A DNA stretch of 64,000 bases from Alphaproteobacteria bacterium (lineage in GTDB: Bacteria; Pseudomonadota; Alphaproteobacteria; CAAHEQ01; UBA3637), in assembly GCA_045638265.1 (NCBI GenBank), contig JAZUBA010000051.1:30194-94193 (forward strand), read 5' to 3'. A program made the translations under genes and the position numbers. This document shows, piece after piece, positions 4,362 to 39,015 of this stretch. The notes beneath the pieces were generated by a model. The model was not told where the DNA came from and searched no databases. It saw nothing but the letters and a program-made list of their open reading frames with translations. Each line of letters begins with the position of its first letter. Positions within the stretch are counted from its first letter, which is position 1.

Positions 4362-4474
4362 CACTTTTTTTCATATTTTTGCATTTTTTTTTCACTTCTT
4401 ATGATTTTAATATATCGGCTTGTTCAAAATATTTCTCCCGATTCGTCTCTTTTTTGCCCTTGTATGTGAAATCG

Positions 4475-4502
4475 TTGCACATAAACGTACCTTTAATTAC
4501 AA
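4475..4502 (+). promoter_or_regulatory. Promoter/operator module for the pilin-like gene at 4542: -35 TTGCAC, 17-bp spacer ATAAACGTACCTTTAAT, -10 TACAAT
   Basis: Sigma70-like hexamers with exact 17-bp spacing, ending 40 bp upstream of the ATG. The spacer sequence is conserved across all family promoters, which suggests a regulator site inside the promoter. Confidence 0.65.
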
Positions 4503-4541
4503 TGTGGTTATGCTGTATTTATTAGACAATTTGGAGGTATT

Positions 4542-7529
4542 ATGAGATTTAGAACGCATATTAAACAAAACGAACGTGGTCGCTCAATGGTTGAAATCTT
4601 AGGCGTTTTAGCCATTATCGGTGTTTTATCATTCGGTGGTATTCAAGGATACAAGTATGCCATGGATAAACATCGGGCAAATGATATCGTCAATGAGGTT
4701 AATATGCGTGCAACAGATATTTGGCATTTATACCAAGATGGTGAAAAAGAATTGCCTGATTCACCTGAAGCAGATGCATTTCCTGAATATCCTGAAATGA
4801 CGCAAACAGGATTTGAAATTCTGGTAACATCCCATCCTCCTGTTGCATTTCGTACATGGGTGAATAATGTACCGTCTGCTGTATGTCAAAAAGTGTTACA
4901 GGAAAATTTAGACGATGCCGTTCAAGGATTAAAATTTGTACAGGTTGATAATGGTGGTGGATTAATACGCTATACAGGTGATATTGCTATTTGTGGTGAA
5001 AGTGGTACGGAAAATCAGATGGTATTTACATCGTTTCTTGATGAAGATGGTGGAGCTGTTGCCTCTCCTGTTAATCCTGATAATCCAAACACACCGTTAA
5101 TTTATTGTGTAGAACAAGATGATTGCCCGCAAGAATGTGGTGGGGCTGTATGTGAAGAAGATACCATGACATGTCGTGATGCTTGTGCAGGTACGGATAA
5201 ACCGATTTGTATGCGAGAAACTGGAACGTGTGTTGAATGTCAAACAAATGATGATTGTGCGATAGTTGGTGACAACTATGTTTGTAATACGGCAGACTAT
5301 ACATGTCAGGAAGTGCGAAAATGCGTAACGGGAGAATATCGGGCTAAAAGTGGTGCATGTATTCCGTGTGATGATATTAATGCTGTTGAAATCAGTCAAG
5401 AAAAGTTTTTCGACCTAACGTTGAATATTGAAGATGATACAACAGGTGTAGAACAATGTAATGCGTGCAACAATACGCATACAGTAACTGTTGATGAAGC
5501 AACGGGAACAACGTATTGCGGTGTTGGATGCATTAAAGGTGTAACGTATGAATCACTTAATGATGGATGTATCCCTTGTCGTAAAGCCGATGGTTCTTTA
5601 AATACGGAACCACATCGGATTAATCAAAATAATAATGCTCGAAGTATGTGTGAAGCTTGTGGTTTGATTTGGTGGAATAATTATTATTTGCAGAATACAT
5701 GTGGTTATTTTCCTACGTGTGAAAAAGGAACTTTTTTGTCTGTCGGTAGTAATCCGACCTGTGTTGATTGTAATTCTAATACTCAATATCGTGTTTCTGG
5801 ATGGGAAGGTGGCGGATATACACCATATTTTGGGTCAAGTAGTTGGAGTTCAGAAAAAATTAATGCAATATGTACTGACAATTGTCGCGATGAAAACGGT
5901 AATCCGACGCGAGAATTAGGTTCTGGTGCATTATGTAAGCCACTCTGTCAACAACCTGATGAAGATGCTTCTATTACAGCTTGTACGGATAAAGATGATT
6001 CAACCGTTTGTAATCGTCAATTCCGAAGTGGCGGAGTATGTTATGCGTGTAGTACATCAACAAGTAAATCTATTGCGACAGGAGGGACTGAGGAAATTGA
6101 TACTTATGAAGAACAAGTTTGTGTTAATTGTGGTAGAACGGTTAAAAACGGATATTGTATTATTGAAAAAGAACCTCAATTAGGGCAATTTAGGGGTAAA
6201 GACGGCAATTTATATAATTGCACGGTTAACGGAGCAGATATTGTTTCTGAAGAAGATTCTGGCTGCATAGCAAATTGTCGTCAGAAAAACGGTAAATATA
6301 GTATGGATGCAGATGCAACACCAATTCGTTGGATTCATACTTATTCAGACGGTAGTCAAAAATGTTTTAAAACATGCCCATCAAATAAATGGCAAAGTAC
6401 GGCAGGTATGTGTATGGATTGTTCACAAGATAATGGAACATATGCAACGTATTATAATATACGATTAAACGCGGATACTTGTGAAAAAGCTTGTCAAAAC
6501 ACGGATTATCCTCGTGAAAATCTTAATGGTTATTGTGTGTTACAGACTTGTCCAAATGATACGGATGGTATGGTAAAATACAGAGGAACCATGGGAGATT
6601 GTCTCCGATGTGATTATACCGGTCAGCCTGATAGGGGTGTTTCCTCAAACTCAATGATAACATCGGCTCAATGTGCCAGATGTAATAATCGAGTAGCAGT
6701 GAGAACTTGGGATTCTTGGGCTGTTTGTGCTTTAATTAATCCAGGTAGTAGTGGTGTTTGTAACAGTAAAAATGTTCAACTTCCTGAAAATATGCCGACA
6801 GAATTAAAAGCCAAAGTTCAGCCATATGTTAACGGAGATTATGATGGTCAAATGTTCCGTGATAATTCTGGGTATTGTCATGAATGTACAACATCTGCTG
6901 CACCAAGTACTTCTGCAGAGCAATGTAATATGTGCAATATTGATAAAATGCAACGTACTTATACAAACGGTGTTTGCTCGTTAGGTGGTTGTCAAACAGA
7001 CGAATTTATGAATAATACCCCAAATTGTGTCAAATGTAAGCCATCCACTGAACCGAGTTCTTATATTTCATCAACATATCAATTAAAAGCAGGTCATACA
7101 TCTTCTTGTACACAATGTGGTAATCGTCAGATTATGACAATCGGTTCAACAGGTTTGCAATATTGCGTACCGAATGATTGTATTCAAAATGCTGATTGGC
7201 AATCCGTTGCGAATGGTAAATGTCAAGATTGTACGGCAGATAATAATGTGCGTGAAATCGGTACGGAACTTGTTTATCGTCAACTGTGTGAAGCTTGTAA
7301 TCGTGTTGCATTTAGTAAGAAAAATGGTGATAATGTCAGTTGGTATTGTTCAAAAATTGTAAATGACGGTTATTTTGTTGATGCTTCTGGTGCGATACAA
7401 AGTTGTTCTTCGGCATCAGATACGATGATACCTAATACGTCAAAAGCCATTTCAGCTTGTGAAGCGGCCTCTTGCAATAGGGTCACAGAAACAGACAGAG
7501 ATGGTCAAGTTTGGTGTATGAAAAATTAA
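4542..7529 (+). CDS. Type IV pilin-like N-terminus fused to a 940-aa cysteine-rich extracellular region (giant pilin-like protein, family member 1)
   Basis: MRFRTHIKQNERG|RSMVEILGVLAIIGVLSFGGIQGYKYAM: Gly(-1), Glu(+5), ~20-aa hydrophobic helix, Tyr about +24/+27, as in class III (prepilin) signals. GGAGG SD. Remainder has ~130 Cys in CxxC / C-x-C patterns. Paralogous N-terminus to 52175 and to the fragment at 51594. Confidence 0.7.
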   Translation: MRFRTHIKQNERGRSMVEILGVLAIIGVLSFGGIQGYKYAMDKHRANDIVNEVNMRATDIWHLYQDGEKELPDSPEADAFPEYPEMTQTGFEILVTSHPPVAFRTWVNNVPSAVCQKVLQENLDDAVQGLKFVQVDNGGGLIRYTGDIAICGESGTENQMVFTSFLDEDGGAVASPVNPDNPNTPLIYCVEQDDCPQECGGAVCEEDTMTCRDACAGTDKPICMRETGTCVECQTNDDCAIVGDNYVCNTADYTCQEVRKCVTGEYRAKSGACIPCDDINAVEISQEKFFDLTLNIEDDTTGVEQCNACNNTHTVTVDEATGTTYCGVGCIKGVTYESLNDGCIPCRKADGSLNTEPHRINQNNNARSMCEACGLIWWNNYYLQNTCGYFPTCEKGTFLSVGSNPTCVDCNSNTQYRVSGWEGGGYTPYFGSSSWSSEKINAICTDNCRDENGNPTRELGSGALCKPLCQQPDEDASITACTDKDDSTVCNRQFRSGGVCYACSTSTSKSIATGGTEEIDTYEEQVCVNCGRTVKNGYCIIEKEPQLGQFRGKDGNLYNCTVNGADIVSEEDSGCIANCRQKNGKYSMDADATPIRWIHTYSDGSQKCFKTCPSNKWQSTAGMCMDCSQDNGTYATYYNIRLNADTCEKACQNTDYPRENLNGYCVLQTCPNDTDGMVKYRGTMGDCLRCDYTGQPDRGVSSNSMITSAQCARCNNRVAVRTWDSWAVCALINPGSSGVCNSKNVQLPENMPTELKAKVQPYVNGDYDGQMFRDNSGYCHECTTSAAPSTSAEQCNMCNIDKMQRTYTNGVCSLGGCQTDEFMNNTPNCVKCKPSTEPSSYISSTYQLKAGHTSSCTQCGNRQIMTIGSTGLQYCVPNDCIQNADWQSVANGKCQDCTADNNVREIGTELVYRQLCEACNRVAFSKKNGDNVSWYCSKIVNDGYFVDASGAIQSCSSASDTMIPNTSKAISACEAASCNRVTETDRDGQVWCMKN

Positions 7530-12581: not shown

Positions 12582-13361
12582 TTATTTCATGGCCGGAATT
12601 TTGATTTCAACAAAGTGTCCGGCAGGAATGCGTTGTTTTGCATATTGCGGATTAACCATTTGAATTGAATAATTTTGCATACCGGTTAATTCGGCTGCTT
12701 TTTTGAAAAACTTTTCGGCTGTTTCATCATATCGACTGGTATTCATGATGTATAAAAGACAAGCTTGTCCCCTATCGGTACGACCACATAATGGCATACG
12801 ATTGGTAATATCTTTATTACGAATGACTAATTTTTCAAATCCGCTACATTGTGTTTTAGGTTGTGAGCTACTACCTCCCCCCATCATTAAGCCTAATAAA
12901 AGTCCTAACATTACTGCACCACCTAATGCAATAGCAATACCTTTCATTGTTGTTAAAAAAGGCGGGATGTTATTTGCATTGGCTTGTTGTGCGTTTATTA
13001 TTTGATGAACAGGTTGAGATGCATGATGGCTGTGCATAGATTGTTGTGCTTGTTCATTTTGATATGGAACTTGTCCGCTTTGATGAGATTGAACACCTGC
13101 TGGACGAGGAGTTTGTCTCATTGGTTGACGTGGCACTTGTCCTTGACGAGAAGTTTGTCCCATTGGTTGATGTGGTGCTTGTCCTTGACGTGGAGCTTGC
13201 CCCATCGGTTGACGGGGTGCTTGTCCTTGACGAGGAACTTGTCCCATCGGTTGACGAGGTGCTTGTCCATGACGAGGTGGAATACCTGTCGGACGCGGTG
13301 CTTGATTGGAATTAAACTGTTGCGATCCATTTCCTGATGGATTTTGATTAGATTGATTCAT
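12582..13361 (-). CDS. Bitopic protein: Gln/Pro-rich repeat N-terminal region, single TM, ~90-aa C-terminal domain (hypothetical)
   Basis: Tandem GQ(A/V)PRQPMGQ(A/T)PRQ repeats, then TM GIAIALGGAVMLGLLLGLMMGGG, then a C-terminal globular region. Last gene of the co-oriented cluster 19394..12582. Confidence 0.5.
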   Translation of the reverse strand: MNQSNQNPSGNGSQQFNSNQAPRPTGIPPRHGQAPRQPMGQVPRQGQAPRQPMGQAPRQGQAPHQPMGQTSRQGQVPRQPMRQTPRPAGVQSHQSGQVPYQNEQAQQSMHSHHASQPVHQIINAQQANANNIPPFLTTMKGIAIALGGAVMLGLLLGLMMGGGSSSQPKTQCSGFEKLVIRNKDITNRMPLCGRTDRGQACLLYIMNTSRYDETAEKFFKKAAELTGMQNYSIQMVNPQYAKQRIPAGHFVEIKIPAMK

Positions 13362-25600: not shown

Positions 25601-25730
25601 AAGATAAAATTTTTTATTAGATTGTTTTATAAAAATACGAAAAATCTTCTAAAAATGGGATTGCATTTTTAGTGTAATACCTTTTTTTGAATTGATGATA
25701 CATGAAGATGTAGCGTAGTACATTACAATA

Positions 25731-25766
25731 AAGAGATGTTTTTTTTTGTAAAACATCTCTTTAAAT
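25731..25766. terminator. Bidirectional terminator between convergent genes
   Basis: Perfect stem aaagagatgttt/aaacatctcttt with T-rich loop. Confidence 0.6.
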
Positions 25767-25795
25767 GATTTACTATTTTATGATGATATCGGATT

Positions 25796-28700
25796 TTATT
25801 GACAATCTGAACTATCATCAGATCCGGCAACCGATGTTGTACCGCTCGGACACTTTAATGCGGTTGTCATTTTTGTTTCAGGACAATAATATCCTTTGGG
25901 ACAAATAGTTGCTGTTGTCATTGTTGTATTTGGACAATAATAACCGACAGGAGAATCTTCACAACTTGATTGACCTGTATTGGGATTAAATGTTCCTTTT
26001 TCACAAGCCTTACAGGCACTTGAAGTTGTTTGTTCTGTCATTGGATTATATTTGCCGGCCGGACAAGCAATCGGATAATCTGATTTTGCCGGACAGTAAA
26101 ATCCTTTTGGACATTTTTCTTGCATATCACCCTTACTGGCATCGGGACAAGTATATCCTGCTGTACAAGGAGTACAGGTAGTAGCTCCGACATCACTATA
26201 TGTTCCGGCACTACAAGGCCCTGCTGTTGATAAACCTGTTGTGGGACAATAATATCCTTTGGGACAAATAGTTGCTGTTGATAAACCTGTTGTGGGGCAA
26301 TAATATCCTTTGGGACAAGTTGTTGCGGAAGTTGCTCCTTCTAACGGACAGTAAGCCGTCATTGGACAAATGGTTCCTGCTGACATACCGGTTGAAGCAC
26401 AATAGGTGCCTGCTTCACATTTTTTACATGCAGATGAATTGTCTTGTCCTTCTTGATTGTTATATGTTCCTTTGGGACAAGATGTGCAATCTGTCTTGGC
26501 ATCAGATCCTGGATTTGAATTATACGTGCCAACCGGACAGGGTATTTGTTCAGCTGAACCAGTAGGACAATAAGTTCCTGCTTTACAAGTGATACACGCA
26601 TCAATACTGGTTGCTCTCTCTTTCGGATTGTATGTTCCTGCTTTACATTTTGTACAATAACTTACGCTTATTTGTCCTGTTTTGGTATTATATGTACCGG
26701 CAGGACAGGGTATTTTATCGGCTGAACCAGCAGGACAATAAGTTCCTGCATCACAAATTGTACATACATCAGCACTGCTTTGTCCTTCAGTCGGATTATA
26801 GGTTCCGGCTTTGCATTTTGTACAATAACTTACACTTGTTTGTCCTGTTTTGGTATTGTATGTTCCTGCTGGACAAGGTATTGGTTCAGCAGAGGCTGTT
26901 GGACAATAATGACCAATTTCACATTTTAAACAAGCTGTTGATTCTGTTGCTCCCTCTGTTGGATTGTAAGTTCCGGCTGGACAAGCTTTTTTTGTTTTTC
27001 CGACACAGTAATAGCCTTTTGGACAGGTGCCACTATCAGTAGAGCCTGCCTCACAATATGAATTTTCAGGACAAGGTTTACAAGATTCTAATCCTTCTTC
27101 ATCACCATAAGTACCTTCCGGACAAATAGTAGGTGTTTTGGATGTTTTGGGGCAATAATATCCTTTCGGGCAAATAATTTCTTCTGTTGTTTCTTTGGGG
27201 CAGTAATGTCCGGCGGTGCAGTTTTGACCACTAAACGTTGTAGACCCTTCCGGACAATAATATCCTGCCGGACAACTGCTTAGTTTGTGGATGTAGCCAC
27301 AATAAAATCCTACCGGACATTTTGCTTTAACCGTAGATCCGGCTGGACAATAATCTCCTTTTTCACAAGGCAAACAATCGGTTGTTGCACCTTTTCCTTC
27401 CTGTGAATTATAGGTGCTGTGAGGACAAACGGTTGCTGTTCCAACACCAGCAGGACAATAAGAACCGGCTGGACAAATAATCGGTTCAACAGATCCTTTC
27501 GGACAATAGTATCCTATTGGACAAGCTAAACAAGCCGATGAAGCAGTTGTTTTGTCATTTGGATTATATTTACCGGCAGGACAAGGCGTAACGGCTTTTG
27601 CTGTACAATAAGAACCTGCTGGACAAGTGATACATTCCGTTGCGCCTGTATTAGGGTTGTATGTACCGCTGGGACAAGTTAAACATGCTGTTGATTCCGT
27701 TGCGCCCATTGTTGGATTATATGTTCCTATTGGACAAGCTGTTTGTTTTGTCGCTGTACAATAATAACCGGCCGGACAAATGCCATTGGTAACGGAGCCT
27801 TCTGGACAGTAAGCATCAGCCGGACAGGTAATGCAATCAGTTTTAGAGGATTTTCCTTCATTGGGATTATAAGTGCCTGTTGGACATTTTGTTGCGCCTA
27901 AAAATGAATTTTCAGGACAATAATGACCGGCAGGACAAATAACAGGTTCTGTTTGATTGGTCGGGCAATAATAACCTGCAGCACAAGAACTTGCTTTTGC
28001 CATACAAATATCTGATCCAGGTATTTTTTTATAAAAATTAATATATAAATTACCGCTACCATGGTCGTATTCATTCGCCATTCTGATTCGGTGAATGCCT
28101 TTTTTTAAATCCAGAGAGAATGTTGTGCCTGTACGGGCATAATAAGAAACATCATCAATAATATATGTTAAACCTATATCTCCATCGGAAGATTTAATGC
28201 TCCCCTGGAAATCATAAGGCATAATGAATACAGAATCTTGGCAGTTGACTAAATTGGTAACATTTCGTTCGTGAGAGTTATAAAATTTGTTTGTGTAGAC
28301 ATATTGAGAATAATTATCACTATCCCAGCGAAATTTTTCACAGTAAATTGCCCGAATAGGAAAACCCATTTCATCGCAATCCAACTTTTGACAAGTGCGA
28401 TTATTGCAATAATAGTAATCGGCGCAATCATTATTTTCTAAACATTCTACACACACATTTTCATCTTCAACATAAATATAATTGTTAGGACAAACGCAAT
28501 CGCCGTTGATGAGTTGTCGTGGTGCGTCGCAAACACATTGAGGTTCTATGCAACTGCATTTTTTTAAAACATCATCGAATGTTAATGGTTCTTCACAACA
28601 CACACATTGGTCGTCAACTTCTTTGCAATCAGGTCCGCAAATGCATTTTTCCAAAGTTGCGTCGTATGTATTTGGTTCAGGGCAAGGTTGACATTTGCCG

Positions 28701-29674
28701 TTGATTAACTTTAACGGTTCTTTACAGATACATTGTTTGATTTTTTCATCATAATATTTATCAGATTCTTTAGCAACACATTTGCCGTCTTTTTTTTCTG
28801 CACAAGATGGGCAGTCAGGTACACATTCAGTACCGTCCCAAACTTCATTTTCATGACAAATAACACAATCTGTACCGTTATAATGAGCTTCATTCGGACA
28901 ACATTTGTTAATATCTACTTCCGTTTGACCTGTCGGACAAGCACATTTACCTTCTGATTCACTCCAACGAGTATAAGGTGCTGCATAGCAACATTCACAA
29001 ATGCCATTTCCTCGGTCACATTTTTGTTTACAGACACATTCTCCGTTGACAAGCACTTCATTTTTGATACAAGTATGTGGATCATCTAAATTGGGGTCAA
29101 TCGGAATATAAATTTTGTCGTCTGATGTGTCTGTTGGAATTGGTATTTTGAAATAAAATTCCATAGAAACATCGCCTTCTTCACCACAGTTTATTATATT
29201 GTCGGGTGACATTGTAATTCCTGTTTTGGCATCTTCATTATCAGAGGAGGCATACAAAGATTGACGCAATACAATTTTTTCGCAAACATCATGTGTTACG
29301 GTTGTTTTGATAACAAATTCTTTACAAACTCTGCCGTTATAACAAGGAACTTCTGACGAGGAAACACTGTTTTCTACATCAGCAATCGGTCCATTATTAA
29401 TGGCACGAACGAGTGTTGATTTACTGGCAACACGATAATCCGCTTCAACGGCAAGTTTGCCTTTCAACACGGTATCCATAATACTGGTAGCACGATATGT
29501 ATCAAATGCTGTTTTGTATCCGATAACACCGGCAATTGAGAACAAACCAATCAACACCAACACGCCTATCATTTCCACCATAGAACGTCCACACTCATGA
29601 AAGACTGATAATCGGGGGGTAAAAAGTGGTTGATATGTTTCTTTTGTAACGCTTTGATTTTGTTTGTTTTTCAT
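25796..29674 (-). CDS. Giant pilin-like protein, family member 2 (1292 aa): pilin-like N-terminus, ~150-aa domain shared with 29911, Cys-rich region, and C-terminal ~730 aa of ephrin-receptor/GCC2-GCC3-like CPxGxYC repeats
   Basis: ...ECG|RSMVEMIGVLVLIGLFSIAGVIGYKTAF... AGGAG SD. C-terminal half is dozens of CP(A/T/K)G(Y/T)YCP... and TAC..CP.GTYNP..GAT.ST.C..C units. Confidence 0.7.
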   Translation of the reverse strand: MKNKQNQSVTKETYQPLFTPRLSVFHECGRSMVEMIGVLVLIGLFSIAGVIGYKTAFDTYRATSIMDTVLKGKLAVEADYRVASKSTLVRAINNGPIADVENSVSSSEVPCYNGRVCKEFVIKTTVTHDVCEKIVLRQSLYASSDNEDAKTGITMSPDNIINCGEEGDVSMEFYFKIPIPTDTSDDKIYIPIDPNLDDPHTCIKNEVLVNGECVCKQKCDRGNGICECCYAAPYTRWSESEGKCACPTGQTEVDINKCCPNEAHYNGTDCVICHENEVWDGTECVPDCPSCAEKKDGKCVAKESDKYYDEKIKQCICKEPLKLINGKCQPCPEPNTYDATLEKCICGPDCKEVDDQCVCCEEPLTFDDVLKKCSCIEPQCVCDAPRQLINGDCVCPNNYIYVEDENVCVECLENNDCADYYYCNNRTCQKLDCDEMGFPIRAIYCEKFRWDSDNYSQYVYTNKFYNSHERNVTNLVNCQDSVFIMPYDFQGSIKSSDGDIGLTYIIDDVSYYARTGTTFSLDLKKGIHRIRMANEYDHGSGNLYINFYKKIPGSDICMAKASSCAAGYYCPTNQTEPVICPAGHYCPENSFLGATKCPTGTYNPNEGKSSKTDCITCPADAYCPEGSVTNGICPAGYYCTATKQTACPIGTYNPTMGATESTACLTCPSGTYNPNTGATECITCPAGSYCTAKAVTPCPAGKYNPNDKTTASSACLACPIGYYCPKGSVEPIICPAGSYCPAGVGTATVCPHSTYNSQEGKGATTDCLPCEKGDYCPAGSTVKAKCPVGFYCGYIHKLSSCPAGYYCPEGSTTFSGQNCTAGHYCPKETTEEIICPKGYYCPKTSKTPTICPEGTYGDEEGLESCKPCPENSYCEAGSTDSGTCPKGYYCVGKTKKACPAGTYNPTEGATESTACLKCEIGHYCPTASAEPIPCPAGTYNTKTGQTSVSYCTKCKAGTYNPTEGQSSADVCTICDAGTYCPAGSADKIPCPAGTYNTKTGQISVSYCTKCKAGTYNPKERATSIDACITCKAGTYCPTGSAEQIPCPVGTYNSNPGSDAKTDCTSCPKGTYNNQEGQDNSSACKKCEAGTYCASTGMSAGTICPMTAYCPLEGATSATTCPKGYYCPTTGLSTATICPKGYYCPTTGLSTAGPCSAGTYSDVGATTCTPCTAGYTCPDASKGDMQEKCPKGFYCPAKSDYPIACPAGKYNPMTEQTTSSACKACEKGTFNPNTGQSSCEDSPVGYYCPNTTMTTATICPKGYYCPETKMTTALKCPSGTTSVAGSDDSSDCQ
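29375..29593. repeat. Inverted repeat arm (5' coding region of the minus-strand pilin-like gene), ~95% identical to 30001..30220
   Basis: Reverse complement of this segment matches 30001..30220 almost base for base (e.g. gacgttctatggtggaaatgataggcgt.ttggtgttgattggtttgttc...gatacaaaacagcatttgatacatatcgtgctaccagtattatggatac). Confidence 0.7.
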
Positions 29675-29709
29675 ATGCTTCTCCTAATGCTGAAATAATC
29701 CTAATCCCA

Positions 29710-29737
29710 TTGTAATTAAACGTACCTTTATTTGCAA
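29710..29737 (-). promoter_or_regulatory. Promoter/operator module for 25796..29674 (minus-strand reading: -35 TTGCAA, spacer ATAAAGGTACGTTTAAT, -10 TACAAT)
   Basis: Ends 36 bp upstream of the ATG at 29674. Same module as the other family promoters. Confidence 0.65.
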
Positions 29738-29840
29738 CGATTTCACCAAAAATCCACTTTTTACGCTAATATGACAATAACCATAAGAAACCTGCCGTTA
29801 GATAAAAATAAAAAAAAATGCAAAAAAGTGAAAAAAATTG

Positions 29841-29868
29841 TTGCAATTTAACGTACCTTTAATTACAA
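29841..29868 (+). promoter_or_regulatory. Promoter/operator module for 29911..39015 (-35 TTGCAA, spacer TTTAACGTACCTTTAAT, -10 TACAAT)
   Basis: Ends 42 bp upstream of the ATG. Preceded by the conserved block ATGCAAAAAAGTGAAAAAAATTGT (29818..29840), also present upstream of 52175. Confidence 0.65.
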
Positions 29869-29910
29869 TCATATTAGCTATGATTATTATGTTAAAAAAA
29901 AGGGGTTTTT

Positions 29911-32900
29911 ATGTTTAACATATTTAAAAATAAAGATTTTTTGTGTTTTAATGCCGATTCGGAAAATGCTCAAAGCAAATCGGATATGACAACCAAACAG
30001 GAATGTGGACGTTCTATGGTGGAAATGATAGGCGTATTGGTGTTGATTGGTTTGTTCACTATTGGCGGCGTTGTCGGATACAAAACAGCATTTGATACAT
30101 ATCGTGCTACCAGTATTATGGATACAGTGTTGAAAGGCAAACTTGCCGTTGAAGCGGATTATCGTGTTGCTGGCAAATCAACGCTTGTTCGTGCGATTAA
30201 TAACGGACCAATTGCCGATGTAAATGATAAAGTGGAATATTATACCGAGGTTGCTTGTGGTAATCGCCAATGTAAAGAATATGTTATTAAAACCAAAGAA
30301 CCGGCTGGTGTTTGTGAAAAAATTGTATTGCGTCAGTCTTTATATAATTCTTCCGATGAATCCGATAATACCCCTGAAATTTATATAACCCCGAATAATA
30401 TAGAGGATTGCGGAGAAGAGGGTGAAGTAGATATGACATTTACTTTTCAAATACCCATGCTAAAAGCGGGAGATGGCAGTGATGTATATGAACCGGTTGA
30501 CGGTACCTTGCAAGAATCTACTTGTCCCGCCGGACAAATTATTATAGATGGTGTTTGTCAGTGTAGACCGGCGTGTGATAGGGGAGAGGGTGTTTGTGTT
30601 TGTTGTAATACGGGATATGAATATGATAATGAGACAAAGTCTTGTATTTGCCCTGCCGGTACACATGATACCGGCAGTGACTGTATTACGTGCGAAAATG
30701 GTACAAAATGGGATGAAACTAAAAAACAATGTGAAAACCCTTGTACAGATGGTAAAATCTGGAACGGTACGACTTGTATAGACCTTTGTTCAGGCGGAAA
30801 AGAATGGGATAGTTCAGCCAATACCTGTGTTTGTCCGGAAGGGACAAATGATAACGGAGAAAGTTGTGTAACGTGTTCAGCTCCGAAAACACATTGGGAT
30901 AACGAACTTAATAAATGTACTTGTCCGACGGGATTTGTTGAACGAAACGGAACGTGTGAACGCAAACCGACTTGCACAGAACCACGAACAGTTTATGATG
31001 AAGCAAGCAATACGTGTCAATGTCCGTCAGAAAGACCGGAATATGATGAAGATAAGAATACATGTAATTGTCCGGAGGCAACACCTTATTGGGATTCAAC
31101 AAAAAATCAATGCGTTACTTGTGTTGTAGGTAACAGTAATACACCGGTTTGGAATGGAACAAGCTGTGTCAGTTGTGCGGGTGCGGATAATACAAAACCT
31201 TATTGGAATGGTACGGAATGTATCAGTTGTTATGCTAATAATCCAACAACCCCTTATTGGAATGGTACAAATTGTACGACTTGTCCGAATACAACACCGG
31301 TATGGAATGGGACGGCTTGTGTCAGTTGTGCAGAAGCCGATAGTACAAAACCTGTTTGGAATAGTACGGAATGTGTGGCTTGTCCGACAGAAACGCCGTA
31401 CTGGAACGGAACAAGCTGTGTCAGTTGTTACGATAATAATCAAACAACACCGTATTGGAATGGTACAAATTGTACAGTATGTCCGGATGCTAAATTGTGG
31501 AATACGGAATCAAACCAATGTGTTCAATGTTTAGATAACGAAAATTGTAGTGGTTCAACGCCTGTTTGTAATGATAATAATGTGTGTGAATCTTGTCCGG
31601 ATGTAATGCCTATTTGGCATACGGATATGAAACAATGCGTCCAATGTTTAGAAAATGAAGATTGTAATGATAACGCAACTCCTGTTTGTAATAATAGCAA
31701 TATGTGTGAATCTTGTCCGGATGCAATGCCTGTTTGGCATACGGATATGAAACAATGTGTTCAATGTTTGGAAAATGCTGATTGTCCGACAGGAACACCT
31801 GTTTGTAACGCCACGAACGCTTGTGAACCATGTCCTGATGAAACACCAATTTGGGTAGCAGAAACAGGTAAATGTATTGCCAGCGATGGTCCGAGTGGAG
31901 ATGGTTCTTGTAATGACAACAGCGATTGCAGTGTGGGCGAATATTGTGATATTACAACATGGGGAACAAGTAAAGACTATTGTACGACAGATACAAGCAA
32001 TATGAGTGGTACATGCCGAAATGCAACTGATGATATCCAATCACCGAATAGTGGCACAACCCCAGCATTTGTAATATCCAACAGACCAATGTATTGGTGG
32101 AGTGCCAATAATTTCTGTCAGGCCTTGGGTAAAGTATTGGCAGAAGTAAGCGATTTTGAATGTGCTCATACAATTTGTCCGGAATGTTCATCAGGAACTT
32201 GTCCGGACGGATGTGATGGTTATTATGGCTATTGTCATCAAGATGATTCATTGGGATTAACAACAAGTGATGGTGTTAACATATCTCCAATCGTTGTTCA
32301 AATGACTAATGCCTACGGAAATTTATGGGGTTGGTTAAATACAAAATATAATGATTGTATGGCATATGATATCAGTTTGCAAAGCGGGGAAGTTAATCGC
32401 TATAACAGAAAGGGTACAAACCCAGCTATTTGTAAAGACCGACCATCCTGTCCAATTGAAACACCGTATTGGAATGGCACAGAATGTACAACTTGTCCAA
32501 TTGAAACACCGTATTGGAACGAAGAAACGGATCAATGCGAAGTTTGTCCGGCTGAAACACCGATTTGGGACGGTACAACATGTATTGAGGGTTATGTTTG
32601 TAAAGGTACTACAAGCGAATGTCAAACAAATAATGATTGTACTCAATTGTATGGTAGTGGATATTATTGTAATATAGAATGTTTTACTGATCATTGTTCA
32701 ACAGAAACGACAAGTCTTGGTGGTTCATGCCGTAAAGCAATTAGTGACGTCAAAGAACCAAACTCAGGAACAACTCCCCCGTTTGTGATGTCCAGTGAGA
32801 AAATGTATTGGTGGAGTGCGAAGAACTTCTGTCAGGCATTGGGACAACGTCTTGTAGATGTAACCGATTACGAATGTGCACATGCAATTTGTCCTGATGA

Positions 32901-35900
32901 TAATTGTGATAATGCATGGGGTTTTTGTCATGCAGATACATCACATAGCGTAGTTGGTGGAAATACAACTAATATATCTGCCAAAATAGCTGCAATGAAA
33001 GAGGCTTATGGCTCTTATTATTGTTGGGTGGATATGGATTATAATTCTTGTAGACCGTATTTTACTAATTTCAACCAAGGACTTGTAACTTTTGGTTATA
33101 GAAATAACAGATATTACGCTGTATGTGAATCTGTTTGCGAAGGCGATACCCCTGTTTGGAACGGTACGGCTTGCGAAGCATGTCCGACGGGAACACTCTG
33201 GAATGAAGCAACAGGTGAATGTGTTGCTGCTCTTTGTAAAGGTGTTGTATATGAATGTAATGACAATGCCGATTGTGATGCAGGTGAATATTGTAATATT
33301 ACATGTTATAATGATACTTGTACGAAAGATACGAGTGGTATGGGGGGAACTTGTCAAAATGCAAATGAACGCATTCAACCACCCGAGAATGGAACGAAAC
33401 CACCGTTTATAATGTCAAATCAACCAATGACATGGTGGAATGCAAATAATTTTTGTGAGGCATTAGGTACAACACTTGTAGAGGTCAGTGATTATGCATG
33501 TGCACATAGTATATGTCCAAGCGGATGTGACGCTACATATGGTTATTGTCATGCGGATCCATCGCAATCAGTGACATTATCCTTTGCCACAAATGATCGA
33601 ACAGCGAAACTACAAGCGATGTATGAAGCCTATGGTAGTAATATTAGTTATGGGTGGACAAATACGGATACTGACGACCTTTGTTACGCATATAACGTTA
33701 GCTTCTATCAAGGTGGTATGTTTAATGGTCTTCGGTATAGTAGCGTTGTTAATGCTGTATGTAAACCAGATTGTGCAGCGACTGATGTAACAAAACCATA
33801 TTGGACAGGTACATCTTGTGAAGCTTGTCCGACAGATACATTTTGGGATGCAGAAAAAGGCGAATGTGTTGACATGCCAATTTGTGTGTTGAATAATTGT
33901 CGCTGGACCGGTTGGATAGATAGATCTCAGCCGGAAAGTGATAATACTGGTGGTGACTATGAAACATTAGATGGTCTTTGTGTAAGTGGTAAAATACAAA
34001 ATATTTCTTGTCGTTCAGTGTGGTTCCCGAATACATCTCTTGATGATTTGGATCAAGTTCTTGAAAGCTGCGATACAGTAAATGGTTTAGTTTGTCTTAA
34101 TGAGAAAAATTATGTTTCTGAACCAGGAGGGCCTAGACCTCCGGGTATGGCTTGTTACAATTATGAAATCAATGTTTTTTGTTGTAGTAATTGTAAAGAA
34201 TGTACGGCCAATACAGATTGTCCTGGTGATTACCCATATTGCGATAGTGGTGTTTGTATGCCGTGTCCAACGGGAACACCTGTTTGGAACGGAACATCTT
34301 GTGAAGCTTGTCCAATGGCAACACCGATTTGGGATTCTGAATTAGGTCAGTGTGTCACTTGTGCCGAAGCCGATAGCACAAAACCAGTTTGGAACGAAGA
34401 AACGAACCAATGTGAGGCTTGTCCTACTGAAACTGTTTGGGATGATGAAGCAGGAGTATGTATCGTACAACAGTGTAAGGGGGTTGTATATGCCTGTAAT
34501 GATAACAATGATTGTGGTGCAGGAGAATATTGCGATATAACATGCTATGATAATCATTGTACGGAAGATATGAGTGGTATGGGTGGAACATGTCGGAACG
34601 TACAAGATGATTTAAATGATAAGTCAGAAGAGGAACCATTCTGGGTTTCGGATAGATATATGAATTGGTGGAGTGCTAAAAACTTCTGTCAAGGGTTAGG
34701 GAAACAAATGATATCCCTTGATGATTTAGAGTGTGCACATCCAATGGAGCTTCATGGATATTGTCATGAAGATACATCAACAGATGTTATTTATTATAAT
34801 CCATTAAACATATCAGACAAAGTATCGAGAACATTTAATGCTTACGGTTCTATTTGGGGCTGGATGGAAAGTGATAGCTATGCTCCTGACAATTGTTATA
34901 CTCGTATGGTTAATTTTAGTAATGGATACGTTCGGTTCCATTTGAGATATATTGTTGGCGGATACGCTATTTGTAAAGACCGACCTGCTTGCCCGACAGA
35001 AACACCGTATTGGGATGGTTCAGTTTGTGTAGCCGAATGCCCGAGTGATAAGCCTGTAATTGGTGAAAACAACGTTTGCGAAGCCTGTCCAGCTGATAAA
35101 CCTGAGTGGACAGGTACAGAGTGTATATATTGTCCTGATACATCTACATGGGATGAAGAATGGAATGCTTGTACATTTACGATTGAATTGGAATCTTATT
35201 CTGCATGTAATAATGATTGTGGGGCTTCGCAGGTTGTAGAAAAATTTTCAGTAAGCAATTTAGAAGCATCGTATGATACTTATTTTACAGGATATGCTGA
35301 CGACTGGTTCTGGATTTGTGAATCATATTTAAGTAATTTAGATCCGAAAAATGAATGTATGAAATACAAATATAATATGGGCTTGAGAGCAGGCGGAACC
35401 AAAACAAACATGTTTATGGGTATAACTTATGCAGGAGAAGGAGCTACAAAAGGATATTGGCACTCATATCAAGGTATTATGAGAATTAATGGAACAATGA
35501 CGTTTGTTTATAATCCAGATATTAAAATGGGAGAATATTGTCCGGTTGGTTATTATTGCTCGTCGGATGGTAACTCAGTTGCAACACAGTGTATAAATGA
35601 AACCATTACAGAAAATATTGCTGAAACTGATTGTCACGTTTGTGATATCCGTTTCTGGAGAGAGGATGATGGTTCTTGTATCTACTGTGAAACTGAAGAT
35701 ACTCAAACCAAGATTGAACAATCCGAATGTAATCGTTGTACAAATAGATTCTGGAAGGATAATAACTATTGTTACCATTGTTCAATTTCGGGAGTGCAAT
35801 CAGGTATCATGCAAAATGAATGTGAACGGTGTAGCAATAGATATTGGCTTGAAACAAATGCAGAAACACATATTGGTTCTTGTACTCTCTGTCCGGATGG

Positions 35901-38900
35901 ATTGACACGGGATAATGCAACAGGGCTTTGTGTTTGTGATGAAGGATTGGTTTTCAATCTTGGTACTAAAAAATGTGTCTCCTGTACCGAAACAACGGGA
36001 AATTTCTCATCAACAGAATTGTCAACGGAACAAAGCTGTCCAGCAACACGATTCTATGCAAATGATGAAAAATCATATTTGTGTAGTGGCACGGGAACAT
36101 ATCCAGTAACAACAGAAGAAAACTGTATGGTTTGCGGTGATGATGTAAATCGTTTCTGGAAGAGTAAAAATGGCTATTGTATCAGTTGTAATTATTCCAC
36201 AGCTGTTGCAGAAACAACCAAAGAAGAATGTTTAACTTGTGTTAACAGATATTGGACAGAAACCAATGCGACAACAGGGATTGGTAAATGTACGAAATGT
36301 GCTGTTGGTCAAGTAGTCAATGCTGATGGTACGGCTTGTGTCAGTTGTGCAGAAGCAGACAGCACAAAACCGGTTTGGAATGGTACGGCTTGTGTCAGTT
36401 GTGCAGAAGCTGATAGCACAAAACCAGTCTGGAATGGCACGGCTTGTGAAGCATGTCCGACGGACAAACCTACTTGGAGTGGTACAGAGTGTTATAACGA
36501 AGCAACAGCACAAAATTGTCAAACAGCGATGACATCAGCCGGATTTAGCACTTCCAAATTCACAATGGATGGAACAACTATTAAATACACAGGCGATATG
36601 ACTCTTTCAAAAGATTTGGATATTTCAGCTTGTAATTTAGATGTTGTCGGTACATTAAAGGTAAATTCGGGTAAAACATTGAAAGTTAATAATGTCAAAG
36701 CTGAAAGTACTGGTATTTATAGCATATTTAACAGCGGCACAATTGAAGTAACAAATATAACGGGAATAGCAACGGGAACAGCATCTTATGGCATCCATAA
36801 TACTTCTGGCACAATAGAAGCAACGGGTGATGTGATGGGAACGGGAACTGCTACTGGTATAAATAACTATGGTGCAATAACAGCAACAAATGTGACGGGA
36901 TCGGGATCGGCTTATGCTGATGGCATCTCTAACGTTGGCACAATAACAGCAACGGGCGATGTCACTGGAACGGGAAATTATGGCATCTATAACAATAGGT
37001 CAGGCAAAATAACAGCAACAAATGTGACGGGAACGGGAATTGGAACTAATGGCAATGGTTCTGGCATTCAGAACACTGGCACAATAGAAGCAACAGGCGA
37101 TGTGACGGGAACAGGAACAGGAGTTTTTTATGGCATCTATAATTCTGGCACAATAGAAACAAGGGATGAAGTGACGGGAACAGGAAATCAATATGGTATC
37201 ATGAATACTGGCACATTAGAAACAACAGGTGATGTGACGGGAACTTCAACGGGAACAGGAAGCTATGTTTATGACATATCTAACAGTGGCACAATGTCTG
37301 CAATTAATGTTTACTATTGTAGAGCGATTAAAAATACTGGCAAAATCATTGGTCATATCCAATGTAAATGTCCTGAAGGCATGTCATGTCCGGCAACAAC
37401 AATTACACAATGTACGGCACCGACACCAGTCTTGTCAGGCAATTTGACAACTTGTGTGGCTTGTGCAACGGCAGACAGCACAAAACCAAACTGGAATGGT
37501 ATGACTTGTGAAGCATGTCCGACAGAAACTCCTGCTTGGAACGGCACGGCTTGTGAAACATGTCCTGCAGAAACTCCTGTTTGGAACGGCACGACTTGCG
37601 AATCTTGTCCGTCGGGTACGTCTTGGAGTGGTACAGAATGTATTGATATGAATGCGTTCAATTGTCAAACAGCGATGACCTCGGCTGGATTTAGTACTTC
37701 TAACTTTACAATGGAAGGAACAACCATTAAATACACTGGTGATATGACTGTTGCAACAGATTTAGATATTTCGGGCTGTAACTTGGATGTTGCCGGTACG
37801 TTAACGGTTAATGGTACTTTGGAAGTTAATAATATCAATGCAGAAAGTTCCGGTGATAAAGGTATTGATAACTATGGTAGAATAATTGCAACAGGTAACA
37901 TCACGGGAACGGGAACCAGTGAGGGTGTATATAATAATGGTGGACAAATTGAAGCACAAAATATTACAGGAACGGGAACCAACTATGATGGTATATATAA
38001 TGCTGGTGCTATGGATGCTCAAAATATTACAGGAACCGGCGGTATGTATGGTATAGAGAACTTTGGTGGTTTTATAACAGTAACAGGAGATATCTCTGGA
38101 ACGGGAAATTATGATGGCATCTATAACTGGATTGGCACAATGTCTGCAACAAATGTTTATTATTGTCAAACGATTAACAGTACTGCTGGTCAAATTATAG
38201 GTAATGTTGCTTGTGGATGTTCTGATAGTTCAAGTTGTACGTCAGACGTAATGCAATGTACTGCGCCGACACCAATTTTGATAGGTCTTGAATCTTGTAT
38301 CAGTTGTGCAGATGCTGATAGTACAAAACCATATTGGAATGGTACGTCTTGCGAAGCATGTCCGACGGACAAACCTACTTGGAATGGAACAGAGTGTGTT
38401 AATGAAGAAATAATAGCACAAAATTGTCAAACAGCGATGACATCAGCCGGATTTAGTACTGATGACTTCACAATGGACGGTATAACCATTAAATACACAG
38501 GCTATATGATTGTTTCAACAGATTTGGATATTTCTGCTTGTAATTTAGATGTTGACGGCACGTTAATTGTTAATTCAGAAACGACATTGAAAGTTAATAA
38601 TGTCAAAGCTGAAGGTGAAGGTTCAGACCGTGGCATCAGTAACTATGGAGGCACAATCAAAGCAACAAATGTGATGGGAAGTGGTAATAATTTTGGCATC
38701 TATAATGGTGAAAGAGGCACAATAGAAGCAACAAATGTGACGGGAACGGGAACCAATGTTAATGCTGATGGCATCTCTAACGATGGCACAATCAAAGCAA
38801 CTGGCGATGTAACGGGAACGGGAACGGGAACTGATAGTAAAGGCATTAATAACGATGGTACAATAACAGCAACAGGTGATGTGACTGGAATAGGAAATGA

Positions 38901-39015
38901 TTTTTTTGGCATCGATAATGATGGCACAATAACAGCAACAAATGTTTATTATTGTGCAACGATTTATAATAGTGGAACAATTAATGTAACGCCTCAATAC
39001 TTGTGTCCTCAATAA
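29911..39015 (+). CDS. Giant pilin-like protein, family member 3 (3034 aa): pilin-like N-terminus, shared ~150-aa domain, WNGT-rich Cys repeats, four C-type-lectin-like modules, EGF/CxC-rich regions, three C-terminal beta-helix-like TGTG-repeat units
   Basis: ...ECG|RSMVEMIGVLVLIGLFTIGGVVGYKTAF... Uninterrupted 9105-nt ORF. Repeats CxxCP..TP.WNGT.C x~40. Modules with YWWSA.NFCQALG...ECAH...GYCH...AYG...WGW...A(I/V)CK x4. Three units starting QNCQTAMTSAGFST and filled with (I/V)TGTG..YGI.N.GTI.AT repeats. Confidence 0.7.
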   Translation: MFNIFKNKDFLCFNADSENAQSKSDMTTKQECGRSMVEMIGVLVLIGLFTIGGVVGYKTAFDTYRATSIMDTVLKGKLAVEADYRVAGKSTLVRAINNGPIADVNDKVEYYTEVACGNRQCKEYVIKTKEPAGVCEKIVLRQSLYNSSDESDNTPEIYITPNNIEDCGEEGEVDMTFTFQIPMLKAGDGSDVYEPVDGTLQESTCPAGQIIIDGVCQCRPACDRGEGVCVCCNTGYEYDNETKSCICPAGTHDTGSDCITCENGTKWDETKKQCENPCTDGKIWNGTTCIDLCSGGKEWDSSANTCVCPEGTNDNGESCVTCSAPKTHWDNELNKCTCPTGFVERNGTCERKPTCTEPRTVYDEASNTCQCPSERPEYDEDKNTCNCPEATPYWDSTKNQCVTCVVGNSNTPVWNGTSCVSCAGADNTKPYWNGTECISCYANNPTTPYWNGTNCTTCPNTTPVWNGTACVSCAEADSTKPVWNSTECVACPTETPYWNGTSCVSCYDNNQTTPYWNGTNCTVCPDAKLWNTESNQCVQCLDNENCSGSTPVCNDNNVCESCPDVMPIWHTDMKQCVQCLENEDCNDNATPVCNNSNMCESCPDAMPVWHTDMKQCVQCLENADCPTGTPVCNATNACEPCPDETPIWVAETGKCIASDGPSGDGSCNDNSDCSVGEYCDITTWGTSKDYCTTDTSNMSGTCRNATDDIQSPNSGTTPAFVISNRPMYWWSANNFCQALGKVLAEVSDFECAHTICPECSSGTCPDGCDGYYGYCHQDDSLGLTTSDGVNISPIVVQMTNAYGNLWGWLNTKYNDCMAYDISLQSGEVNRYNRKGTNPAICKDRPSCPIETPYWNGTECTTCPIETPYWNEETDQCEVCPAETPIWDGTTCIEGYVCKGTTSECQTNNDCTQLYGSGYYCNIECFTDHCSTETTSLGGSCRKAISDVKEPNSGTTPPFVMSSEKMYWWSAKNFCQALGQRLVDVTDYECAHAICPDDNCDNAWGFCHADTSHSVVGGNTTNISAKIAAMKEAYGSYYCWVDMDYNSCRPYFTNFNQGLVTFGYRNNRYYAVCESVCEGDTPVWNGTACEACPTGTLWNEATGECVAALCKGVVYECNDNADCDAGEYCNITCYNDTCTKDTSGMGGTCQNANERIQPPENGTKPPFIMSNQPMTWWNANNFCEALGTTLVEVSDYACAHSICPSGCDATYGYCHADPSQSVTLSFATNDRTAKLQAMYEAYGSNISYGWTNTDTDDLCYAYNVSFYQGGMFNGLRYSSVVNAVCKPDCAATDVTKPYWTGTSCEACPTDTFWDAEKGECVDMPICVLNNCRWTGWIDRSQPESDNTGGDYETLDGLCVSGKIQNISCRSVWFPNTSLDDLDQVLESCDTVNGLVCLNEKNYVSEPGGPRPPGMACYNYEINVFCCSNCKECTANTDCPGDYPYCDSGVCMPCPTGTPVWNGTSCEACPMATPIWDSELGQCVTCAEADSTKPVWNEETNQCEACPTETVWDDEAGVCIVQQCKGVVYACNDNNDCGAGEYCDITCYDNHCTEDMSGMGGTCRNVQDDLNDKSEEEPFWVSDRYMNWWSAKNFCQGLGKQMISLDDLECAHPMELHGYCHEDTSTDVIYYNPLNISDKVSRTFNAYGSIWGWMESDSYAPDNCYTRMVNFSNGYVRFHLRYIVGGYAICKDRPACPTETPYWDGSVCVAECPSDKPVIGENNVCEACPADKPEWTGTECIYCPDTSTWDEEWNACTFTIELESYSACNNDCGASQVVEKFSVSNLEASYDTYFTGYADDWFWICESYLSNLDPKNECMKYKYNMGLRAGGTKTNMFMGITYAGEGATKGYWHSYQGIMRINGTMTFVYNPDIKMGEYCPVGYYCSSDGNSVATQCINETITENIAETDCHVCDIRFWREDDGSCIYCETEDTQTKIEQSECNRCTNRFWKDNNYCYHCSISGVQSGIMQNECERCSNRYWLETNAETHIGSCTLCPDGLTRDNATGLCVCDEGLVFNLGTKKCVSCTETTGNFSSTELSTEQSCPATRFYANDEKSYLCSGTGTYPVTTEENCMVCGDDVNRFWKSKNGYCISCNYSTAVAETTKEECLTCVNRYWTETNATTGIGKCTKCAVGQVVNADGTACVSCAEADSTKPVWNGTACVSCAEADSTKPVWNGTACEACPTDKPTWSGTECYNEATAQNCQTAMTSAGFSTSKFTMDGTTIKYTGDMTLSKDLDISACNLDVVGTLKVNSGKTLKVNNVKAESTGIYSIFNSGTIEVTNITGIATGTASYGIHNTSGTIEATGDVMGTGTATGINNYGAITATNVTGSGSAYADGISNVGTITATGDVTGTGNYGIYNNRSGKITATNVTGTGIGTNGNGSGIQNTGTIEATGDVTGTGTGVFYGIYNSGTIETRDEVTGTGNQYGIMNTGTLETTGDVTGTSTGTGSYVYDISNSGTMSAINVYYCRAIKNTGKIIGHIQCKCPEGMSCPATTITQCTAPTPVLSGNLTTCVACATADSTKPNWNGMTCEACPTETPAWNGTACETCPAETPVWNGTTCESCPSGTSWSGTECIDMNAFNCQTAMTSAGFSTSNFTMEGTTIKYTGDMTVATDLDISGCNLDVAGTLTVNGTLEVNNINAESSGDKGIDNYGRIIATGNITGTGTSEGVYNNGGQIEAQNITGTGTNYDGIYNAGAMDAQNITGTGGMYGIENFGGFITVTGDISGTGNYDGIYNWIGTMSATNVYYCQTINSTAGQIIGNVACGCSDSSSCTSDVMQCTAPTPILIGLESCISCADADSTKPYWNGTSCEACPTDKPTWNGTECVNEEIIAQNCQTAMTSAGFSTDDFTMDGITIKYTGYMIVSTDLDISACNLDVDGTLIVNSETTLKVNNVKAEGEGSDRGISNYGGTIKATNVMGSGNNFGIYNGERGTIEATNVTGTGTNVNADGISNDGTIKATGDVTGTGTGTDSKGINNDGTITATGDVTGIGNDFFGIDNDGTITATNVYYCATIYNSGTINVTPQYLCPQ
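30001..30220. repeat. Inverted repeat arm (5' coding region of the plus-strand giant gene), partner of 29375..29593
   Basis: See partner arm. Together they flank a ~410-bp spacer containing both promoters. Confidence 0.7.
36510..39012. repeat. Three tandem, diverged, in-frame repeat units (~1140, ~760, ~590 nt), each starting QNCQTAMTSAGFST...
   Basis: Unit starts at ~36510, ~37655, ~38420 with >85% nt identity over the first ~150 nt. Each unit ends with VYYC..I.N. Confidence 0.7.

Follow-up and report, generated by a model that had tools for sequence, protein, structure and literature searches.

The Locus and Its Inverted Repeat

The 64-kb window analyzed here, that is, the whole 64,000-nucleotide stretch of the alphaproteobacterial contig JAZUBA010000051.1, contains two large divergent genes whose 5' ends form a long inverted repeat. 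Gene A (25796..29674, minus strand) encodes 1292 amino acids (aa), with a 28-residue leader, a pilin-like N-terminal domain and a cysteine-rich body with ephrin-receptor-like repeats. Gene B (29911..39015, plus strand) encodes 3034 aa, composed of a 32-residue leader, a pilin-like N-terminal domain and a giant repetitive Cys-rich body. A repeat search of the window recovered a single long inverted repeat, with arms of 225 nucleotides (nt) each at 29375-29599 and 29998-30222, 92% complementary and separated by 398 nt. Such a pair is far beyond chance, and no other inverted repeat longer than 135 nt is present in the window. By direct count the arms are identical at 207 of 225 bases, with exact runs of 52, 44, 32 and 21 nt. 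The original prediction, made from the letters of this stretch alone, had described inverted repeats of ~220 bp and ~95% identity; comparison of the window with itself confirms that the repeat is real and correctly placed, with the identity revised to 92%.

Both arms lie within coding sequence. The left arm (29375..29599, minus strand) comprises codons 26-100 of gene A; it opens three codons ahead of the conserved Gly29 and takes in the long N-terminal helix that is predicted by homology to a structural model of B. The right arm (29998..30222, plus strand) comprises codons 30-104 of gene B, begins three codons before the conserved Gly33 and covers the predicted helix 34-87 plus the following loop. 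The repeated stretch is therefore best described as the predicted mature N-terminus of the pilin-like domain, with its long helix and the loop after it. An alignment of 75 codons gives 59 identical pairs, 11 synonymous differences and 5 nonsynonymous ones. Amino-acid identity in the arm is 95%. The most conserved core (30076..30171, plus strand; B residues 56-87, with its A counterpart at 29426-29521) differs between A and B at a single one of 96 positions, and at 6 of 96 when compared with a divergent B allele from the related strain L079 (B_L079).

The sequences on either side of the arms behave differently. The leader peptides of A (codons 1-28; 29591..29674, minus strand) and B (codons 1-32; 29911..30006, plus strand) cannot be aligned. 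Downstream, A and B can be aligned at the protein level to about residue 245, with shared cysteines and the common motifs VCEKIVLRQSLY, CGEEG and CDRG.G.C.CC, which contradicts the earlier statement that everything 3' of the arms is unrelated. The 410-bp control region proposed between the arms also shrinks on inspection, since about 160 of the 398 nt code for the two unrelated leaders and the intergenic sequence amounts to 236 nt only. A G6 homopolymer at 29614-29619, within the A leader codons, is short for a slipped-strand phase-variation tract.

In their present orientation A and B each have their own promoter-like element and ribosome-binding site. A conserved element precedes each family gene, and consists of TTGCAA, 17 nt and TACAAT; the near-palindrome TAAAsGTACsTTTA lies in the spacer, and over its full length of 28-29 bp the element is roughly dyad-symmetric. 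Two classes can be told apart by their upstream sequence, namely T1, with GAAATCG before the element, and T2, with AAAAAAAATGCAnAAAAGTGAAAAAAA before it; both probably act as promoters. The element of A (29709..29737, minus strand; TTGCAA, 17 nt, TACAAT, with the near-palindrome TAAAGGTACGTTTA in the spacer) is of class T1. That of B (29804..29869, plus strand) is of class T2, with an A-rich upstream block followed by TTGCAA, 17 nt and TACAAT around AACGTACCTTTA (element 29841-29869), and it is also present in strains that lack A. The T2 block recurs in the window at only 64-78% identity. An A-tract just upstream of the B -35 box (29831-29837) varies from A7 to A9 between strains, which could reflect slippage or sequencing error.

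The different promoter classes, together with leaders that cannot be aligned and share 41% of their nucleotides, exclude that the pair arose when a promoter and its 5' end were recently duplicated in inverted orientation in one simple event.

A Recombination Signal in the Arm

Divergence between A and B changes abruptly at the arm boundaries. Nucleotide identity is 41% in the leader, where synonymous (dS) and nonsynonymous (dN) divergence are not computable, rises to 92% in the arm (dS 0.29, dN 0.024) and falls to 57% in the next 140 codons (dS above 1.4, dN 0.50). At conserved residues with degenerate codons, A and B use the identical codon in 56 of 67 cases (84%) within the arm versus 35 of 59 (59%) downstream (p = 0.003). 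Other paralog pairs with conserved helix residues have 22-56% identical codons.

To place this similarity in a phylogenetic frame, we compared site patterns among A, the window allele of B (B_win) and the orthologous allele B_L079, with Fisher's test, and also aligned the B alleles of the related strains L079, L081 and L088. In the arm, A and B_win agree against B_L079 at 28 sites, and B_win and B_L079 agree against A at 4. Downstream the grouping is reversed, with 34 and 120 sites, respectively (arm versus downstream, p = 3.6e-12). Identity values follow the same course: A and B_win share 92% in the arm versus 81.5% for B_win and B_L079, and 57% versus 75% downstream. Paralogs within one genome are thus closer than orthologs in the arm and more distant in the flank, the pattern of concerted evolution. 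In alignment columns 100-130, A groups with B_L079. These reversed groupings indicate that the gene head is pieced together from segments with three or more different histories.

The B alleles are themselves mosaic. B_L081 alternates between window-like and L079-like blocks, and the alleles of L079, L081 and L088 range from 98% down to 77% identity with window 29911-30690, forming block mosaics of each other within flanks that are 98% identical. The B ortholog of L079 is 2070 aa long, versus 3034 aa in the window.

The original prediction had taken the identity at synonymous sites as a sign of very recent duplication or ongoing gene conversion. Synonymous identity is indeed raised, and the site patterns point to conversion or recombination, but "very recent or ongoing" overstates the case: the arm dS of 0.29 between A and B, compared with ~0.05 between the window and L088 alleles of B, implies an exchange older than the strain splits. 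The 96-nt core may be a younger tract, and its contrast with the rest of the arm is of borderline significance for A versus B (p = 0.05).

A different view is that A and B go back to an old duplication and have exchanged nothing since, the arm looking young through extreme purifying selection on the helix combined with constraint at the nucleotide level. The 95% amino-acid identity of the arm, the conservation of the core in the divergent B_L079 and the 59% codon identity that persists at conserved residues downstream would all fit. Selection on the protein, however, does not account for a grouping of A with B_win that is limited to the arm (28:4 versus 34:120), and the other paralog pairs with conserved helix residues do not approach the codon identity of A and B. 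Nucleotide-level constraint through RNA also finds no echo: folding of the B 5' mRNA is no better than that of shuffled sequence (z = -0.04), and an Rfam scan of the window gave no hit. We regard the old-duplication view as quite improbable. An RNA element in the arm was likewise rejected as a candidate in its own right, on the same two results.

Gene A Is Present in One Strain and Absent from Others

Through look-up of neighboring proteins we retrieved contigs from 12 other samples, 98-99% identical to the window in the flanks. Six conspecific contigs (L079, L080, L081, L083, L086 and L088) reach the junction, and all of them lack window 25601-29803. This strain-specific segment (25601..29803) of 4203 nt comprises gene A, its 3' flank, the T1 promoter and the inter-promoter spacer. 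In all six, homology ends at window 25600, directly after the stop codon of a 268-aa gene, and is followed by an 82-nt filler with no counterpart in the window; it resumes at 29804 in the five contigs that are long enough, L086 stopping inside the filler. The segment matches the fetched loci through the arm only. Its GC content, 38.7%, is similar to that of B (39.8%). Among the data compared, the head-to-head A/B pair occurs in this genome alone. More generally, the genes vary between strains that are 98% identical elsewhere, by presence or absence, mosaic alleles and swapped bodies. In L083 (~5270) the B start codon is ATT instead of ATG, which could reflect inactivation or a sequencing error. 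Near the left end of the segment, at 25662-25693, TTGCATTTTTAGTGTAATACCTTTTTTTGAAT looks by eye like a promoter element that has decayed and taken up small insertions.

Exact look-ups of proteins A and B returned no record, and no A ortholog turned up anywhere searched. A word-indexed homolog search with A retrieved P0014 only, and the one with B residues 1-250 was empty. Scans of JGI metagenomes with the B N-terminus and with an invariant 32-mer of the arm were both empty.

Given that A stands beside B in this assembly only and that protein A is on record nowhere else, the pair could be suspected of being an assembly chimera built on the shared repeat. A repeat-mediated misjoin would break within the arms, though, and both junctions (25600/25601 and 29803/29804) fall outside them: on the left the join is within unique sequence, on the right it coincides with the T2-block edge. 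This placement argues against misassembly induced by the repeat. The arms also differ at 18 positions and so are not one collapsed copy. An artifact of this kind is scarcely credible.

The position of the right junction raises another possibility, since 29803/29804 is also the upstream edge of the conserved T2 block. The 28-29-bp dyad elements (TTGCAA..sGTACs..TTACAA) could be sites of site-specific or hotspot recombination that move promoter-to-gene cassettes, and that brought A beside B. A search of the window with the element pattern gave 11 matches at six places, versus 0.01 expected, and all six adjoin family genes. A further breakpoint of this type was seen at the locus of another family gene, 4542..7529, in strain L092: its sequence is identical to the window through the T1 -10 box, and is then followed by a different family gene, of 337 aa, and by different downstream genes (PMSR/SelR). 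The region concerned is L092 6716-9995 versus window 4440-4760, with the break directly after the -10 box. This difference is either a real rearrangement or a metagenome chimera, the L092 contig deriving from a metagenome assembly. Several points stand against the elements as recombination sites. No recombinase gene was found nearby among the open reading frames scanned, the left junction of the A segment sits in unique sequence directly after a stop codon and has no element, and breakpoints at the edge of shared sequence are expected in any comparison of nonorthologous family members. We therefore consider such a role very improbable.

The Arms as a Possible Inversion Switch

The layout of the locus, with 225-nt arms flanking the 398 nt that hold both promoters, invites comparison with DNA-inversion systems. 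In Campylobacter fetus, S-layer antigenic variation proceeds by RecA-dependent nested inversion among the sapA homologs, whereby a single promoter shifts among silent cassettes. The sap locus comprises several genes that have different bodies and one conserved 5' region in common, and opposed copies flank a promoter-bearing segment, so that there too the 5' regions form inverted repeats. By analogy, the arms could be the inverted repeats of a RecA-dependent invertible segment, inversion of 29600-29997 swapping promoter class and leader between the A and B bodies and thereby altering regulation. With exact runs of up to 52 nt in arms that flank both promoters, RecA-dependent inversion is physically possible. 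The swap would not be neutral, the promoters being of two classes, and breakpoints in the family occur at 5' modules and at promoters.

Nevertheless, inversion would hand each gene the promoter and ribosome-binding site of the other, and would not change which gene is expressed; both genes keep a promoter in either orientation, which leaves no ON/OFF logic. The open reading frames (ORFs) scanned across the 64-kb window revealed no recombinase, integrase or transposase domain, the A/B arrangement is missing from the six conspecific strains, and head-to-head pairs are rare in the family (one other in 90 loci, 69% identical). In comparison with sap, each gene here has its own promoter, the identical stretch spans only 225 nt, and no inversion isomer was seen among the strains compared, of which only this one carries the pair. 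The Moraxella Piv inversion and the R64 shufflon rely on short specific sites and on a dedicated recombinase (Piv, Rci) encoded alongside. They resemble the present family in that rearrangement joins one constant coding region for the pilin N-terminus to a choice of C-terminal bodies, and differ from it in the recombinase, which has no counterpart in the ORFs scanned. Nothing shows that the repeat works as a DNA-inversion switch, and we think it unlikely that it does.

Origin of the Repeat

We favor the explanation that the repeat is a patch of recombination or gene conversion within a large multigene family whose products are giant pilin-like proteins; to this explanation we assign a probability of roughly 0.7. 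A and B are paralogs within an unnamed family of uncultured gut Alphaproteobacteria. In its members a leader ending in Gly, R-S-M-V-E with a hydrophobic stretch, a helix of ~54 residues and a small disulphide-bonded head precede a Cys-rich body that is highly variable and often giant. Between A-type and B-type genes, the part coding for the mature N-terminal helix would have been exchanged by homologous recombination, presumably in the form of gene conversion, which would have left an island of 225 nt and 92% identity, bordered by unrelated leaders on one side and on the other by the rest of the domain, which is older and diverged. The exact runs of 52, 44 and 32 nt are of sufficient length for RecA-type exchange. 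A 4.2-kb segment with A and its own T1 promoter lies head-to-head with B in this genome alone, and through this strain-specific insertion the recombination patch would have become an inverted repeat. Strong constraint on the helix at the protein level would keep the sequences alike enough for further exchange. Exchange and helix constraint together would make the repeat a by-product of concerted evolution, not a dedicated switch.

Several observations weigh against this reading. Gene A is known from one genome only, so any direction or date assigned to the exchange would be tentative. The incongruence could also be explained by a third paralog replacing the arm of B_L079, rather than by exchange between A and B. 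The contrast in codon identity (84% versus 59%) is moderate, and site-to-site rate correlation could account for part of it. The 96-nt core is unusually conserved in the divergent B_L079 as well, which constraint at the nucleotide level could explain, though here the contrast is not significant (p = 0.81). As to the pilin-like nature of the proteins, the curated N_methyl threshold is not reached: four of five members score 12-18 bits with PF07963 against a cut-off of 21.2, the B arm gives no hit, and a Foldseek search of the B model against the PDB produced no significant match.

Exchange of segments between paralogous surface-protein genes by homologous recombination takes place in Helicobacter pylori babA/babB and in Neisseria pilE/pilS. 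These systems and the present one have in common mosaic alleles and conserved ends around variable parts, as in the paralogs of the metagenome-assembled genome (MAG) BRZ_CI89, which share their 5' and 3' ends. Unlike them, the family has no logic of expression locus and silent locus, and it is the conserved assembly helix that has been exchanged here, whereas the variable antigenic part has not.

A Pilin-Like N-Terminal Domain

The four family genes that are intact in the window (A, B, 4542..7529 and 52175..54469) have a common N-terminal domain of about 170-200 aa, which begins E-x-G-R-S-M-V-E-[MI]-[LI]-G-V-L-A-x-I-G-V-L-S. In an alignment of 30 family members, G33 and, five residues on, E38 are invariant, and two cysteines nearly so. 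The Gly/Glu motif is followed by a hydrophobic stretch of ~21 residues, MVEMLGVLAVIGVLSIGGI. A class III signal peptide, as defined in PMC10191384, has a hydrophilic leader whose last residue is Gly or Ala, followed by 20-25 residues that are mainly hydrophobic and often include Glu at +5; by motif the family conforms to this pattern (IPR012902 / PF07963).

Profile comparisons point the same way at low scores. An hhalign comparison with the Pseudomonas PAK pilin, whose sequence was entered by hand, placed Gly-1 and Glu+5 in register (E = 2.8e-4, probability 41%). NCBIfam prepilin models matched g4542, the product of 4542..7529, only (E = 0.005-0.02). Of the ten hits in a profile search against solved structures, eight were type IV pilins, all weak (E = 0.05-0.8). 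The AlphaFold2 model of B 1-190 (mean predicted local distance difference test, pLDDT, 77) has a 54-residue helix (34-87), then four strands and a helix. The "lollipop" fold of type IV pilins combines a beta-sheet head with an N-terminal helix of about 50 residues packed against it; as stated above, Foldseek gave no significant PDB match for the model. No prepilin peptidase, assembly ATPase or platform protein is encoded within the 64-kb window. Considering the class III pattern and the subthreshold scores together, we speak of a pilin-like domain and refrain from classing it among the pilins; the term used in the original prediction is thus justified by motif, though below curated thresholds. 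Prepilin-type processing of the A/B family proteins, and a role at the surface or as adhesins, may be supposed.

For the proteins themselves the closest known kind is the modular type IV pilins, and for the dynamics the bab, pilE/pilS and sap families. Modular type IV pilins number >1,200 proteins in 264 architectures (PMC8179133). In Streptococcus sanguinis PilB and PilC and in CofB of enterotoxigenic Escherichia coli, as here, an N-terminal pilin-type module bears a grafted functional, presumably adhesive body. Also shared are a leader ending in an invariant Gly, Glu at +5, a hydrophobic stretch of ~21 residues and a predicted helix of 54 residues. Family bodies reach about 2,850 aa, compared with 860 aa for the longest modular type IV pilin cited (PMC8179133). 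Further differences are Arg at +1 and Glu at -3, PF07963 scores below the cut-off, the lack of pilus machinery in the window, the dozens of paralogs per genome, and database names that are all "hypothetical protein".

The bodies of A and B differ. That of A matches the Pfam family Ephrin_rec_like (1e-18), and that of B has no Pfam match. Within B, a Cys-rich module of ~200 aa, marked by (M/T)(Y/W)WSA.NFC.ALG, occurs in about five copies in 31900-35100. In 36300-39015 there follow three C-terminal units, each some 250-380 aa long, whose repeats are rich in G-T-G (GTI.ATGDVTGTG).

The Family in Other Genomes

An exhaustive profile search recovered 5879 cluster representatives at E <= 1e-3, of which 3562 remained at E <= 1e-10. 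The 78 genome loci are all from MAGs of gut or rumen origin, and almost all of these carry the label Alphaproteobacteria; a single genome has up to 25 modules. Every source name looked up for family members is "hypothetical protein".

In four of these MAGs (SIG53, RGIG7750, BRZ_CI89 and BRZ_DT56), paralogs at different loci have common 5' modules with 90-98% nucleotide identity; the shared stretch begins 0-480 nt upstream and extends 550-1150 nt into the gene. SIG53 has five such genes at different loci, 91-96% identical in the first 210 nt past the conserved Gly. By BLAST their shared block runs from ~-215 to +600-700, and the bodies beyond are unrelated. In BRZ_CI89, BRZ_DT56 and RGIG7750 the paralogs share ~950-1150 nt of 5' coding sequence, up to 480 nt upstream in some pairs, and also a 3' block of 720-910 nt (79-85% identical), with a variable middle in between. 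Different bodies or middles behind one 5' module, which a comparison with related genomes had been expected to reveal, are thus indeed found. The idea of a mobile 5' pilin cassette placed before different adhesin bodies holds as a recurring pattern in other MAGs. A and B are not a promoter-plus-5' copy, and their sequences 3' of the arms are related at the protein level to about residue 245. Head-to-head pairing, with only the one other case mentioned above, was rejected as a rule of the family. Stand-alone proteins of 158 aa, P0081 and P0143, consist of the pilin-like domain only, occur on many contigs and have the best PF07963 scores of the family (18 bits); proteins of this type could be the major subunit of a putative filament.

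The dyad element (TTGCAA..sGTACs..TTACAAT), which is species-specific and resembles a promoter/operator, is seen only beside family genes, which suggests one common regulator, and it is absent from family loci of other MAG genera. A bolder proposal would take the whole family as an unrecognised system of adhesin or antigen variation in uncultured gut Alphaproteobacteria, with dozens of giant modular pilin-like genes per genome, one species-specific 28-29-bp dyad promoter/operator, and promoter-plus-helix 5' modules and bodies reshuffled between loci by recombination at these elements; the A/B pair would be one snapshot of it, possibly an invertible promoter-swap unit. We put this forward as a speculation that is rather unlikely.

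The repeat itself is an ordinary outcome of paralogy and gene conversion, and its interest rests on the family. With ~5,900 cluster representatives, the latter is unnamed and known only from metagenomic gut Alphaproteobacteria, and it fuses an atypical pilin-type head to bodies several times longer than the longest modular pilin cited in PMC8179133. If the proteins were surface adhesins on a type 4 filament, they could serve this uncultured gut lineage in attaching to host or mucus and in evading immunity.

Other Family Members and Features of the Window

Besides A and B, the window holds two intact family genes and a pseudogene. Gene 4542..7529 (plus strand) encodes 995 aa and has its own T1 element at 4475-4503. 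Gene 52175..54469 (plus strand) encodes 764 aa, with a T2 element at 52048 (52048-52069) and a further T1-like element at 52113-52141. Next to it, at 51594..51874 on the minus strand, lies a pseudogene fragment of the family 5' module, in which the conserved processing-site Gly is changed to Asp and a frameshift leads to a stop after ~58 mature residues; its T1 element is at 51909-51937. Pseudogene and the 5' end of 52175..54469 are 74% identical over 123 nt. The older partial inverted copy that had been noted beside the fourth family member therefore exists, in the form of this frameshifted and truncated pseudogene.

The T1 class of the A element is shared by g4542 and the pseudogene. Each of the three window loci has one T1 and one T2 element back to back, even with a pseudogene (51.9 kb) or no gene (4.33-4.39 kb) on one side. 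At the latter, an orphan T2 element (~4330-4391, with the dyad sequence at 4333-4361) is directed away from 4542..7529 toward a terminator hairpin, with no gene to drive, and may be the relic of a lost divergent partner.

Four tandem genes with mTERF domains (Pfam PF02536, E = 6.5e-6 to 1e-27) occupy 46549-51451, and are also present in strain L079. The mTERF domain is typical of eukaryotic organelles and rare in bacteria. Look-up of the mTERF-domain protein at 50153-51451, the neighbor of the pseudogene, gave no record.

Three ORFs without Pfam hits contain tandem repeats. The first, at 15908-18391 (minus strand, 827 aa), has long arrays of 48- and 51-nt units in 10-12 copies, some >90% identical. 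The second, 59098..61353, has a 144-nt repeat in 3 copies, 93-97% identical, at 60412-60922, and the third, 12582..13361, a 42-nt repeat in 4 copies at 13071-13280. Other genes of the window (YidC, MnmE, MlaA/MlaC, Sel1 and ankyrin repeats) fit a low-GC (35.5%), host-associated Gram-negative bacterium.

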